From: Elusimicrobiota bacterium
GTDB taxonomy: Bacteria; Elusimicrobiota; Elusimicrobia; F11
Reading direction: 5' to 3'
Length of the DNA stretch: 18,567 bases
Assembly: GCA_046153645.1 (NCBI GenBank)
Contig: JBJXGI010000102.1
Coordinates: 1-18,567 of the forward strand
Made by a program: the position numbers. Each line of letters starts with the position of its first letter. The first letter of the stretch is position 1. This document shows, one piece after another, positions 1-6,000 of the stretch.

Positions 1-3000
1 AAAGATGCGAATAATCCCAGCATCCCTGTTTCCAAAAGAAGAAACCAAAAGAAATACTCTTTGGTCCGTTTATCGACACCAAAAGAGGCAATTACTGAAA
101 TAAGACACAAAAAAGTGGTCAAAAGAATCATGGGAAACGAAATTCCATCAATACCCAAATGATATTCGATATTAAAAGTTGAAATCCAAGGAAGTTTTTG
201 AACAAATTGCATTTCGTGAGTTAGTGAATTAAATTGCGTCAGTAACAGCAGAGATAAAATAAAGGTAAAAGCGGAAAAGATGGTAGCGATGGTTCTATGT
301 ATCTTTTCATTCTCCTTTGATGTAAATAGGATAACAACACCTCCTATCAGAGGTAAAAAAGTTAACCAAGAAAGAATTGATGAAGAATTCACGCCGAAAC
401 TCCTTATACTTTATTTAAAACTTTGAGCAATCCACACGAGCATCGAACCGAGCCCAATAACAATCCAAAACAAATAACTTTGAATCAGTCCTGATTGTAG
501 TTTCTTCATACCAGAACCCAATTTATCAATGATGAAACCATTTCCATCAATAAGAATTTTATCTACAAATTTTCCATCTAAAAAAGAACTCACAACTGAA
601 GTGATTTTTCCACTGCGGCCAATACCATCAACAACACCTTGATCCAAAATATCATAGTCAATTTTGGCTAAAAACCGACTTATCGGATGATAAATATGAC
701 CAATGGCCCATAAATAAATCTCATCAATTTTCCAGCGATCAGTTAAAAATTTATGAGGAATTGAAAATTGTTTCCCTAAAAATGGATAAACCGGTGGTTT
801 AGACATATATATCCAACCTGCCATAGCCAAACCAAAACCAAAGGCCGCCAATGAAATATAAAGAATCATCGGAGCATGATGAACAGCTTCACCATGTTCT
901 CCCCAAGCGATGAATTTTCCAATATTCCCACCATGAATCAAAAAGTAGCCTAAAACCACAGATAAAAAAGCGAGGAGAACTAAAGGAATTGTCATAAGAG
1001 CGGGAGATTCGTGGGCATGATGAAATTTTTCTTCATCGCGGGGATGACCCACAAAAGTTAAAAACCAAGTTCTAAACATATAAAAAGAAGTCATCAGTGC
1101 CGCTAAAGCCAAAAGCGCAAAAATAACCGGGTTATGATGATGAGCGACCGCTAGTACCTCTTCTTTAGAATAAAACCCTGATAAAAAAGGACAACCCGCA
1201 ATCGCTAACGTACCGATTAAATAACAAGTTGAAGTAATAGGCATTTTTTTACGAAGCCCGCCCATCTGCCACATATCGTTTGTATGAACTGAGTGAATAA
1301 CACTTCCTGCGCATAAGAAAAGAAGCGCTTTGAAAGCAGCATGCGTGGTTAAATGAAACATGCCAGCAACATACCCACCACAACCCAATGCGGCCATCAT
1401 AAATCCAAGTTGACTTACAGTTGAAAAAGCAAGAACACGTTTAATATCACGAGAAACAAGTCCCATACTAGCGGCCACCAGAGCGGTAATAACTCCAACC
1501 CAAGCAACAACTTCCATTGTTAAGTGAGACGCCTCAAAAAGGAAAAATACTCTGGCTACCATATAAACCCCAGCTGCAACCATGGTAGCAGCGTGAATGA
1601 GAGCTGAAGCGGGAGTGGGGCCTTCCATAGCATCGGGCAACCAAACATGTAAAGGAAACTGAGCCGATTTTCCCATTGCGCCAAAGAAGAGCATCAGGGG
1701 AACACCAACAACAACCCAAGTAGGATAAGAAGAAACCATTGTTTTTATATTTTCAGAAAGGGCCGGAATATTAAATGTCCCCATATAATTGAAAATAGTT
1801 AATAGCGCAATATATAAACCTAAGTCGCCGACTTTTGTAGTTAAGAACGCTTTTCTACCCGCATAAGCGGCAGCATCACGCTCAAAGTCAAAACCGATAA
1901 GAAGATAGGAACATAATCCCACCATCTCCCACCCGATAAAAAACTGCAACATGTCATTAGCAACAACCAGGATGAGCATTGAAAATGTAAATAAATTGAC
2001 GTAAGCGAAATAACGTCCAAAACGCTTATGATCATGCATATATGAGATGGAATAAAGCTGAACCAAGAATGAAACAAAAGTGACAACAACCAACATAACA
2101 GAGGAGAGACCATCAATTAAAACACCCAAACGAAAATCGAAATTACCGACTGAAAACCAAGTCATGTATTTTTCGTAAAAAAGGCCTTGAAGACCTTCTG
2201 TAGGCAAAACAATGCTTCCTTTCATAATTCCAACAGCAATCAACAAGGAATGGACAAAACAATACCCCATTGCGACTAGCCCCACCCAAGCGCCTTGAAG
2301 TCCTAAAAATTTTCGAAAGAAAATAATAAGTACAAAGGCCAACAAAGGCGCAAACACAATTTGATATGAATTTTCAAGCAAAAAAGCTGCTGACATGTAA
2401 ATATCCTTTTAAATTTTAATTGAGCTCTAAAAAAAACTTTTTGATCGACCCTTCTAAGGTTGAAGATGAAATCAATGATTTAGCACTCTTTAATAAATCC
2501 TTAGAAAGTTGACTGTCCATTTCTATTAACTCAGAACGAACCCAAGATCTTTGCGCTTCACCAATCAAATCTTCTTTAATTTTTCCGGTTTTAATTCCTT
2601 GAACATGATCCCATTCAAACACATTATTCATAAAAACCAGTTGAATCTCTTTCGGAGTTTGTTGCTGTTGATCAAACCAAATAAACAAATGTGTTTCATT
2701 AACTCCTTGGAACCAACGCAAAGCTTGTCCCGGTTTTTGTTGCAACGCTGTCGGATCAATTTCCCGGAGCGATTGCCCAACAATTTTAGGTTCTACAAAC
2801 CATTCCAGCTGATTAAAGTCTTTCGGGAAAGGAGCAACGAACTGAAAAGCAACATTGTCTTTACTAATAAACCGAACCACCTTTAATTGTAATAAAAGAG
2901 AAAAATCTTCTATTTCAAGAGAACTGGAATATATCTGACCTTCCTTAAGTCTCTGTACATCTTCAATATTTTGAAAGACCATCCGGCATCCACGAAGGCT

Positions 3001-6000
3001 AATGTTTTTTACATTTCCTAAAGGAAATTTATCTATTTCCCCTGATTCCGGTTTTAATAAAAAAATTCTTGGCTTTGGGTGATCGTCAAGCTCTAATCGA
3101 AATTGTTTCCGTTTTTCATTCCATGATAAAGATTGATCAGAAGATTCTTTATCGTTACTTTTATTAAACCCGAACCAATTTTTTAAACTCATCCTTGCAG
3201 TATATTCATTTTCTCAACAAGAATATTTCGCGATTGTCGATATATGGTTAAAACCAAAGCCAATCCAACAACGGCCTCTGCTGCGGCTAAGGCAATAATA
3301 AATAACACAAAACCTTGACCCCATAAATTTTCTGGGTACAAATAACGGTTAAATACAATAAAATTAATAGCAGCAGCGTTAAACAAAAGCTCAACGGACA
3401 TCAGAATTCCCACAACATTTCTTCTGGCTAAAATTCCGTACAAACCAATAGAAAAGAGAATGGCGCTTAAAATAAGAAAAGGTTTTGGACCCATTTACGA
3501 TGCCTTCTTTGAACTAAAAAATATTGCCCCAATCAGTGCTACCACCATAACCAACGAAATGACTTCGAAAGGAAGGACCATTTGTTTTATTAACAGATCT
3601 CCTAACTTACCGGTTGTGGCCTGAGGTTCGAGCATTTTAATAGGCACTGACCATTTACAAATAAATCCCAACATGGCCGTAACAAAAAAAATCGAAAAAA
3701 GCCCTGCAGCCCATGATTTTTCATTGACTTGGCGACCCGTCCAATCGCTGGGTTTGCCCGATAAGAGAACGACAAAAAGAAGAATAATCATAACGCCGCC
3801 AATATAAACAAGAAGCTGGACTGCAAATAAAAAGTCAGCCGCTAACATTGCATAAATTCCCGCTACCCCCAATAAAGAGGTGACCAAAAAAAGAGCGGCG
3901 TGAAAAACATTTTTAACGCTAACAACCAACAAAGCAGGAACAAGAGTTAATAAAGCTAAAATTCCAAATATTAAATATTCGATCATTGTGCGACTTCTCC
4001 CTTTTCTTTAGGATCCGAAAGAGACGAAATTTTTTCTTTTCTTCCATCTGGCATAAAACGAAACCATTCTTGTGCTTTGGGACCTTGAGCAACTGTATCG
4101 GCCAGTGTGGGGCCCCATTTAACCAAAGCGTCTTTTCTACCGTCAAAAACAACTTCGTATTCATTGGAATGATGAACAGATTTTACCTTTGTAGGACAGG
4201 CTTCTTCACAAAGGCGACACACATTACATTTCGCGAAATCTATTTGATACCACGATAAATCTTTCTTCTTGGTTTGTTCATTGCGAACCCACTCCATTGA
4301 AATAACATCGGAAGGGCAAACTCTAACGCACATTTCACAAGAAATACAAATCTCAGGATGAAATGAAAGCACACCTCTAAATCTTTCTGGGACCGGTTTT
4401 TTCTCTCTTGGAAACTGGAAAGTGTGTGCGGGTTTAAAGTAGTACTTCAGGGTGAGCATCATCCCCTTCATGGTGGCCCAAGATACTCTAAAAATAGTTT
4501 TCAAATCCCAAAACATTTACTTAAGCCTCCACAACAAAACAAAACCCGTAATTAAGATATTTATCAAAGTCCATGGAATGAAAATTTTCCAACACAAATC
4601 CATAATTCGATCAACTCGAATTCGAGGGAAAGTCCAACGACTCCAAAGGAAAATAAATATAAGTCCAAATGTTTTCATGAGCATCCAAGCCCAAGAAGGA
4701 ATGAAATCAAGCGCTGGGAAAAGCGGCGACCCTCCGCCTAAGAAAAGAACCGCACCTAACAAAGATCCGATAAACACATAAGCATATTCAGCTAAAAAGA
4801 AAATCGCAAATTTCATTCCACCATATTCCGTGTGAAAACCTGCGGTTAATTCAGATTCAGCTTCAGGAACGTCAAAAGGAACTCGGTTGGTTTCAGCAAT
4901 CGTGGTAATAAGATAAATGATAAAACTAATTTGACCCACAACGGGATAGAAAATAAACCATCGGGGAAACCATCCGCCCATATGAAGTGATTGTGCGTTC
5001 ATAATATGAGTCAGGTTCATAGAGCCCACCCACATAATAACAGGAACAACTGATAAAATTCGTGGAATTTCAAATGACACAACTTGTGCAGCCGCTCGAA
5101 GTCCACCAAATATAGAAAATTTGTTGTTAGATCCCCACCCTGCCATCAATACACCAATAGTAGAAAGACCCGAAACAGCCATGACATAAATAAGACCAAT
5201 ATCTAAATCGAGAGCGGCTAATCCATTCCCCAAAGGAAGGGGAGCCACACATAAATACGCAGGAACAAACACAATGACCGGTGCTAAACGAAATACCCAT
5301 TTATCTGAACCGAGAGGCTCAATAATTTCTTTTAAAAGAAGTTTAATCCCATCGGCAATTGTTTGTGCCCAACCATGCCATCCTCCCACATCCATGGGAC
5401 CTAACCGCCCTTGTATATGAGCGGCCACTTTTCGTTCCCACCAAACAAGAACGGCGGGAATTGCTTGGATAATTTGAATCCAAATAACAGCAGGAATAGT
5501 GATAGCTAAAATTGTCGGAATGAATAAAGGAATGTTATTTTTCGCAGCAAGATCAAAAATAAATTTATGTCCTAATTTAAACCAAGGTGATAATTCTCCA
5601 ATCGCAGAAACAGCTCCAATAAAAAGCGCCACAAGCGCCGTTAGCCAAATAGCAGAACGAACCCAACTTTGACGCATTCGAACTTGTTTATCTTGGAACT
5701 TTTGAAGATATTCGCGCATCCTTTCTGAAGAAGGATCGGGAATAACCACAGAAGGCGCTACCGGGGCCGGAGTGGGTTGAACAGATTCACTCATCGGTCA
5801 ACCTCCCCCAAAACGAAATCGAGAGATCCCAATATGGCAATGACATCTCCTACTTTCCAACCACGAATCATTTCACTCAAAGCTTGTAGGTTAATAAATG
5901 AAGGAGGGCGAACATGATATCGATAAGGGCGATCGGTTCCATCAGAGACAATATAAGTTCCCAACCACCCACGAGGACCTTCGAGTTGGTCGTATACCTC

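Follow-up and report, generated by a model that had tools for sequence, protein, structure and literature searches.

A PilZ-domain gene inside the complex I operon of the Elusimicrobiota order F11 encodes a putative c-di-GMP receptor with an unnamed second domain

Why should a respiratory complex I operon carry, between nuoK and nuoL, the gene for a soluble protein that resembles a c-di-GMP receptor, and on what might that protein act? We addressed this question for a member of the Elusimicrobiota order F11, as the earlier note labels it, in a window (the whole stretch of DNA analysed) of 18,567 nt. The gene, which we call PilZ-X for its PilZ domain and a second, unnamed domain X, stands among the following features:

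1..392, minus strand: nuoM, 5' part (tblastn); the remainder and nuoN are on contig C88
411..2396, minus strand: nuoL (PF00361 and PF00662)
2416..3192, minus strand: PilZ-X gene, an open reading frame of 258 aa with a soluble product and 10 homologues at 34-43% identity
3189..3192, minus strand: ATGA, the overlap of the nuoK stop and the PilZ-X start (from the sequence)
3189..3494, minus strand: nuoK (PF00420)
3495..3986, minus strand: nuoJ (PF00499)
3983..4516, minus strand: nuoI (Fer4), with a C-terminal tail containing K147 and R159
4517..8459, minus strand: nuoH, nuoD, nuoC, nuoB and nuoA (Pfam)
8453..9139, minus strand: menG/ubiE quinone methyltransferase (TIGR01934, above cut-off), overlapping nuoA and heading the operon

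The genes nuoA-D and nuoH-N are present, nuoM being divided between contigs C92 and C88, and their order is menG-nuoABCDHIJK-PilZ-X-nuoLMN; menG holds the same position in the nine other loci that reach that far, and together with a polyprenyl synthase it flanks the nuo genes. No nuoE, nuoF or nuoG lies between nuoD and nuoH, and a search of the 99.7% complete genome for NuoF (PF01512) returned no match, absence of the N-module being judged by operon content and this profile. Outside the operon, 3 of the 12 genomes of the order have PF01512 matches, at four loci, and the three of these that were checked contain no nuo gene.

The open reading frame and its Pfam-annotated neighbours agree with what the earlier note had described, a 258-aa gene for a PilZ and a second domain between nuoK and nuoL. 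Its ATG start overlaps the TGA stop of nuoK, and 19 nt separate its own stop from the nuoL start. A chance open reading frame or artefact is ruled out by the homologues, their open frames and a dN/dS of about 0.12-0.19 (three pairs, with synonymous sites near saturation), which indicates purifying selection; nuoI gives 0.11 in one of the same three pairs. The highest 19-residue hydropathy of the protein is 0.95 and a membrane-spanning segment is therefore lacking; a role as membrane subunit was rejected, such a hydrophobic segment being absent in this copy. An Rfam search of the whole window gave no matches, and no promoter- or terminator-like sites were found on the minus strand between 2200 and 3700.

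The protein's N-terminal part carries the features of a putative ligand-binding PilZ domain:

2794..3117, minus strand: PilZ domain, residues 26-133 (PF07238 at E 6e-4, and structural matches)
3097..3111, minus strand: RxxxR motif, R28-R32, both arginines present in 49/49 aligned PilZ-X proteins
2989..3006, minus strand: [D/N]hSxxG motif, N63-G68, with D/N, S and G each in 27/28 close homologues

For this copy the Pfam score of PF07238, 20.5 bits, is slightly below the gathering cut-off of 22.5, which the close homologues P0013, P0018, P0020, P0023 and P0024 pass. The second motif reads NISLRG here. As had been claimed for R28, R32, N63 and G68, these residues, and S65 with them, are invariant in all 11 first homologues; the two arginines are also present in all 28 close homologues, and both motifs are complete in 25 of these and in 43 of the wider set of 49. 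In the G404 copy a glycine replaces the serine of the second motif, and F118 is conserved in 25/28 close homologues. Invariance across the family is greatest in the residues of the ligand motifs. The claimed resemblance of the predicted model (mean pLDDT 68.9) to PilZ domains also held, since these are its best PDB matches: Foldseek returned 4xrn at E 1.3e-4, and VIA aligned 101 residues with MrkH (5ejl) at Z 12.2 and rmsd 2.6. Each of the order's 12 genomes has GGDEF matches, between 9 and 17 of them. That PilZ-X is a putative c-di-GMP receptor is thus well supported by motifs, predicted fold and genomic GGDEF content.

The remainder of the protein is of a less familiar kind:

2419..2799, minus strand: unnamed domain X, residues 132-258 (in the model a short helix, a sheet of about seven strands and two C-terminal helices)
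3160..3192, minus strand: residues 1-11, a hydrophobic and probably amphipathic stretch at the N-terminus, a candidate membrane tether

Domain X, about 125 aa long and modelled with a pLDDT of 89.8, has no match in Pfam, in NCBIfam or among PDB sequences, and no Atlas features for this copy; Foldseek returned nothing at E<=0.001, comparison with PDB structures gave no clear match (best Z 5.4), and modelled alone the domain drew no PilZ match. The full-length profile gathers 432 representatives at E<=1e-3, many of them stand-alone or duplicated X. The best conserved part of PilZ-X is the linker, residues 118-150, with 69% mean identity against 38% in the PilZ barrel. Ranked against the other windows of the same protein, the hydrophobic moment of residues 1-11 stands at the 80th percentile or higher in 21/28 close homologues; this copy gives a weak value (0.30, 53rd percentile), and the segment is missing in G281, P0009 and P0014; stand-alone X proteins have an amphipathic C-terminal stretch (>=90th percentile) in 18/21 cases.

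Is the gene, then, a fixed part of the operon? A full-length match is found in 9 of the 12 genomes of the order, in agreement with the earlier count. Among the three negatives, the contig of G392 ends inside nuoI and says nothing on gene presence; in G337 (96% complete) and G401 (83%), nuoK adjoins nuoL, the operon is intact and no X match was found. The gene is absent, in other words, from 2 of 11 informative genomes, and we therefore rejected a core subunit or essential assembly factor, which should occur wherever the operon does. Where the gene is present, it follows nuoK directly in 14/14 loci and overlaps its stop codon in 13 of them (12 ATGA and one GTGA), an overlap retained even with GGA a rare glycine codon (5-14%, three loci); each of the three nuoK genes without it ends in TAA. 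Within the order it was never seen at another site. The best Nuo tree nests both gene-less genomes among gene-bearing ones, but the AU test does not reject a single gain (p 0.14) with a tree that has one long, 26%-filled outgroup and omits G403 as too short. The nuo-linked copies form a branch of their own (SH-aLRT 84, unstarred), so that their target may differ from those of other subfamilies.

Outside the order the picture changes. The earlier note had counted the gene in nine F11 genomes and in none of 14 other Elusimicrobia, and the nine genomes inside the order stand; a restriction of the whole family to this order was rejected, with a member in G371, another genome of the class Elusimicrobia, and many in the Bdellovibrionota. 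The G371 copy, the one case among 393 genomes outside the family, follows sdhB in an sdhCAB neighbourhood; as a second respiratory link it is weak, being found in 1 of 16 genomes of its order and belonging to a different subfamily. In the phylum Bdellovibrionota, 34 PilZ-X loci (30 best-scoring and 4 from another search) have glpX (27/34) or a pgsA-like gene (29/34) within 1.5 kb and START-type genes (PF03364) nearby in 24/34, and nuo genes within 1.5 kb in none. The commonest co-oriented neighbour is glpX, which encodes a sugar-phosphate enzyme. Stand-alone X in the Bdellovibrionales (n=33), whose neighbours include mlaEFD and lolC/E-like genes, has a lolC/E-like gene nearby in 33/33 loci, an mlaD-like gene in 29/33 and nuo genes in 0/33, making 0/67 with the PilZ-X loci. 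These loci share ancestry and were selected by best score, and are therefore not independent tests. The X family also has Myxococcota- and Rifleibacteriota-type members; the context counts leave these out, together with the closest unplaced homologues, P0013, P0016, P0019, P0020, P0023 and P0024. Domain X is a member of a broad family whose proteins occur as PilZ fusions, duplicated or alone, and which holds stable operon positions in the Bdellovibrionota.

What does this say of the partner? Because the family sits in differing housekeeping operons across lineages, complex I itself is the less likely partner, and we favour, at nearly an even chance, a dispensable, membrane-tethered c-di-GMP adaptor that is co-expressed with complex I and acts on another partner. 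The gene position would let ribosomes that end nuoK start PilZ-X; an N-terminal amphipathic helix would tether the product to the inner membrane on its cytoplasmic side; binding of c-di-GMP would order the RxxxR loop and, through the conserved linker, shift the packing of the PilZ barrel on X, which might then bind or release a membrane-associated partner. The nuo operon would most likely provide expression in step with respiration. Consistent with this are the motifs and fold, GGDEF in 12/12 genomes, the conserved linker, the contexts without nuo genes and the gene-less G337 and G401. Several observations pull the other way: the gene lies deep in the operon, after nuoK in 14/14 loci, and has never been relocated within the order; the NuoI tail co-variation described below points to complex I; the amphipathic signal is weak here; and the nuo-linked branch is separate, with the Bdellovibrionota loci being kin and best-score picks. 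Of the earlier suggestion of c-di-GMP input to complex I, the receptor half is well supported by motifs, fold and GGDEF content; position and translational coupling speak for possible input to complex I itself, and the same operon without the gene in two relatives and the stable place of PilZ-X near glpX elsewhere count against it.

Control of complex I is accordingly a possibility and not the likeliest reading, the relatives elsewhere lying in unrelated operons. We rate as somewhat unlikely a regulator, particular to this lineage, that would place the 11-subunit enzyme under c-di-GMP control by docking on its exposed Q-module, most plausibly at the C-terminal tail of NuoI, where electron donors dock in enzymes without NuoEFG, and gating electron entry by c-di-GMP. 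Gene position and start/stop coupling, the lack of a NuoF match in the genome and the proposal, in the available part of PMC3144371, that the Q-module of such enzymes is a docking platform all point this way; homologues elsewhere without a nuo link do not. Nor does the NuoI tail decide the matter. K147 and R159 are invariant in 11/11 gene-bearing loci, each is replaced by E in both genomes without the gene, and PilZ-X carries the conserved acidic residues E134, E144 and E193. Of the invariant NuoI columns, however, 3.6% are changed in both gene-less genomes, where 36 control pairs have a mean of 0.6% but a maximum of 8.5%. NuoI was moreover selected out of five scorable subunits, and a single event may account for both gene-less genomes (AU p 0.345), so this co-variation is a lead only, not significant against the controls. 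NuoH, NuoJ, NuoK and NuoL gave nothing above control, and NuoM and NuoN, because of gaps, no scorable columns. A fuller version, in which PilZ-X would be a c-di-GMP-switched accessory subunit on the basic NuoI tail, gating electrons into a complex I without an NADH module, and other lineages would aim the family at GlpX or lipid transporters, we hold to be unlikely.

Two further readings shift the emphasis from the pump to its surroundings or its construction. Domain X might handle lipids or quinones on the surface of the membrane, with c-di-GMP as the switch, the operon link being menaquinone supply; menG, polyprenyl synthase, sdhCAB in G371, the START-type and pgsA-like genes, mlaEFD and the lolC/E-like genes are suggestive neighbours, as are the terminal amphipathic helices. 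This theme was, however, drawn post hoc with the neighbours already seen; in fold, X resembles LolA/LolB or PRELID1 weakly (Z 4.0-4.8, LolB 4.8; Foldseek E>=0.19), glpX does not fit it, and the sdh case is the single genome of another subfamily noted above, which leaves the idea improbable. Slighter still is the chance that PilZ-X helps to assemble the membrane arm, or is an accessory structural subunit of it, at the NuoK/NuoL junction, with c-di-GMP binding incidental. Its coupling to nuoK directly before nuoL and the better conservation of X and linker than of the PilZ barrel would suit such a role, but two of the informative genomes keep an intact operon without the gene, NuoK and NuoL show no excess change in them (NuoK 1.0%, control mean 0.8%; NuoL 0.9%, control mean 0.6%), and the most invariant residues family-wide are the ligand motifs.

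Should PilZ-X act on complex I, it would tie c-di-GMP directly to a proton pump of respiration and offer a first way to learn what docks on the 11-subunit enzyme, a question left open in the part of PMC3144371 available. Whatever the target, an unnamed domain family is now defined, whose confident model has no clear counterpart in the PDB, and since the Bdellovibrionota have cultured members, it is testable there. In the open-licence literature searched we found no report of a link between c-di-GMP and complex I or of the PilZ-X family. The available text of PMC10519070 names motility, biofilm and kinases as receptor targets and no respiratory complex, that of PMC3271064 treats 15 PilZ proteins, none tied to the PilZ-X family, and that of PMC10335732 makes no link between c-di-GMP and complex I.

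Among known folds, X may be nearest to MAM33/p32 (gC1qR) and TipC2, which share its sheet of about seven strands with flanking helices. Several MAM33 chains are among its top matches (7te3, Z 5.0; 1yqf, Z 4.8, 100 aligned, rmsd 4.2); with identities of 4-10% and scores in the tool's 'common arrangement' range, this likeness is a lead only. The accessory subunits NdhS and NdhV of cyanobacterial NDH-1 sit at its ferredoxin site and, being small, soluble and placed on the Q-module of an enzyme that has no NuoEFG, are a possible analogue; structure searches returned no sequence or fold match of either to PilZ-X or X, and they are not known as c-di-GMP receptors.

PilZ-X has both the RxxxR and the [D/N]hSxxG motif of the canonical PilZ receptors (PF07238; MapZ, Alg44, YcgR, MrkH and MotI), as given in the available portion of bioRxiv 10.1101/814665. 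In YcgR/MrkH-type proteins a PilZN domain precedes PilZ, whereas in PilZ-X the PilZ domain is N-terminal, from residue 26, and the extra domain C-terminal; with no N-terminal PilZN, and no PilZ match for X alone, we do not place it in that class. The operon shares the standard order nuoABCDHIJKLMN and the lack of a NuoF match with the known 11-subunit complex I without NuoEFG, whose electron donor is unknown and for which ferredoxins have been proposed in Desulfitobacterium (PMC3144371 and PMC11238625, in the parts available). It differs from other such operons in the flanking menG and polyprenyl synthase, in a NuoH of 425 aa whose Pfam domain begins at residue 103, and in the additional gene, for a soluble signalling protein, that separates nuoK from nuoL.

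The placement of a PilZ-X gene within the nuo operon is a real arrangement, and apparently one undescribed so far: open-licence papers on PilZ with nuo or complex I, c-di-GMP in Elusimicrobia, PilZ in Bdellovibrio, accessory subunits of the 11-subunit enzyme and PilZ with glpX yielded no description of the gene or of domain X. By Pfam and NCBIfam matches, the window carries:

Minus strand: operon in the order menG, nuoA, nuoB, nuoC, nuoD, nuoH, nuoI, nuoJ, nuoK, the 258-aa ORF, nuoL, start of nuoM
2416-3192, minus strand: PilZ-X ORF, 258 aa, between nuoK and nuoL

The remainder of nuoM, together with nuoN, is located on contig C88 of the same genome, and a polyprenyl synthase gene lies 3' of nuoN in one metagenome relative. 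Because NuoF found no match in this 99.7% complete genome, complex I here is of the 11-subunit type described in PMC3144371. NuoH (window 4517-5794) is 425 aa long, with about 100 residues ahead of its Pfam domain, Pro/Ala-rich at the beginning and holding an additional hydrophobic stretch; it is long (442 aa) in the gene-less relative G337 as well.

Upstream of the operon (window 9482-12793), genes for a sulfite/nitrite reductase, a JAB-domain protein and a PLP cysteine-synthase-like protein stand in a row that resembles a sulfur-carrier route to cysteine; genomes G317 and G281 have all three, and G337 the reductase and synthase. On the opposite strand, some 11 kb away from the PilZ gene, a GAF and HD-GYP phosphodiesterase-like gene precedes a PilT-like ATPase (14647-17206). 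At 17246-18535 is an NrfA-like cytochrome c552, perhaps truncated at its 5' end where the contig stops. It carries five CxxCH motifs; CxxCK, the usual active-site motif, is not among them.

That the 258-aa ORF is a real gene follows from its ten homologues, at 34-43% identity, and from its low dN/dS (about 0.12-0.19 in three pairs, with synonymous sites near saturation). The earlier note had claimed a match in 9 of 12 genomes of the order and a nuoK-gene-nuoL order overlapping the nuoK stop, and both hold. Those nine genomes hold full-length matches, and four metagenome loci come in addition. nuoK lies directly upstream in all 14 loci, a count that takes in two copies from the 14% contaminated genome G404. 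In ten loci the gene is followed immediately by nuoL on one contig; the remaining four run into a contig edge, two of them with the gene end and nuoL on another contig. In 13 of the 14 the start codon shares bases with the nuoK stop (12 ATGA, one GTGA), even in loci that seldom use GGA for glycine, and nuoK lacking a downstream PilZ-X gene ends in TAA (3/3). No X match was found in G337 (96% complete) or G401 (83%), where nuoK adjoins nuoL, and the G392 contig ends in nuoI, so that the nuoK-nuoL junction is not covered; thus nine of eleven informative genomes carry the gene and two encode complex I without it, and we reject a core complex I subunit on this ground. Our best tree suggests that the gene was lost, but a single-gain topology is not rejected (AU p 0.14).

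Residues 26-133 match Pfam PilZ slightly below cut-off, and the two structural claims made previously, conserved c-di-GMP motifs and a PilZ-like model, are borne out. The best PilZ structure aligns at Z 12.2 (rmsd 2.6, 101 residues), and both motifs, as defined for canonical PilZ in bioRxiv 10.1101/814665, are complete in 25/28 close and 43/49 wider homologues. GGDEF matches number 9-17 in each of the 12 genomes of the order. The protein probably binds c-di-GMP. An amphipathic N-terminal stretch, weak in the window copy, occurs in 21 of 28 close homologues; the protein would be tethered to the membrane, and the signal would leave through domain X. The best conserved region is the linker, residues 118-150 (69%). 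Modelled alone, domain X (residues 132-258, pLDDT 89.8) folds into a sheet of roughly seven strands flanked by helices; its PDB matches peak at Z 5.4, while MAM33/p32, TipC2, polo-box and LolB chains score 4-5.2, and they amount to no identification.

Domain X is an unnamed family deserving a name. A profile search returned 432 representatives at E<=1e-3, the best 150 of which include PilZ-X, longer duplicated forms and stand-alone X; Pfam found no family above cut-off except PilZ in 97 members, and Atlas structure clusters provide a lead to members in Rifleibacteriota and Myxococcota. Stand-alone X was located in 33 loci, whose titles almost all name Bdellovibrionales or kin; a lolC/E-like gene is close by in all 33 and an mlaD-like gene in 29, the usual order being mlaEFD-X-lolC. 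A strong amphipathic C-terminal stretch occurs in 18 of 21 such proteins; these proteins may be accessories of lipid or lipoprotein transport. The conserved run there (L060-L092, e.g. L074:5021-5980 and the next two genes) reads ridA, DUF218, mlaE, mlaF, mlaD, X, lolC/E-like. In Bdellovibrionota, 34 PilZ-X loci (30 best-scoring, four from a separate search) have neighbors within 1.5 kb that include a pgsA-like gene (29 loci), glpX (27) and a START-type gene (24), making this form a candidate c-di-GMP link to gluconeogenesis. At L111-L138, L095 and L096, from many genomes of that phylum, glpX and the START-type (PF03364) gene are downstream and the pgsA-like gene divergent. A quick tree of X separates nuo-, glpX- and mla-linked copies. 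The supposed absence from other Elusimicrobia stands only in part: the nuo-linked subfamily is set apart, but G371, of the same class, has PilZ-X between sdhB and rpsO (1/16 genomes of its order), grouping with another subfamily. Three further genomes of the phylum encode short, distant stand-alone X-like proteins of 123-133 aa (L059:1504-1905, L057:1519-1902, L058:1330-1701), two of these proteins preceded by a CpXC-type gene.

Because members of the family have stable places in unrelated housekeeping operons, nuo adjacency alone predicts little about the target, and weight shifts to a partner other than complex I. We therefore favor, tentatively and at somewhat under even odds, an adaptor co-expressed with complex I that acts on a different membrane-side partner. 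Direct regulation of complex I is less likely. One specific lead speaks for it: NuoI K147 and R159 are invariant in 11/11 gene-bearing loci and both glutamate in G337 and G401, yet this co-variation (3.6% of invariant columns) falls within the control (mean 0.6%, maximum 8.5%, 36 pairs), NuoI was singled out from five scorable subunits, the two gene-less genomes may share one event, and none of the 67 family loci outside the order (33 stand-alone, 34 PilZ-X) has a nuo or sdhAB match nearby. A role in lipid or quinone handling appears improbable, and one in complex I assembly more improbable still.

In sequence and in fold, the protein shows the features of a canonical PilZ. A YcgR-type PilZN-PilZ identity is rejected, since X lies C-terminal to PilZ; in mode of action, the protein would resemble the PilZ adaptors of the MapZ/YcgR type.
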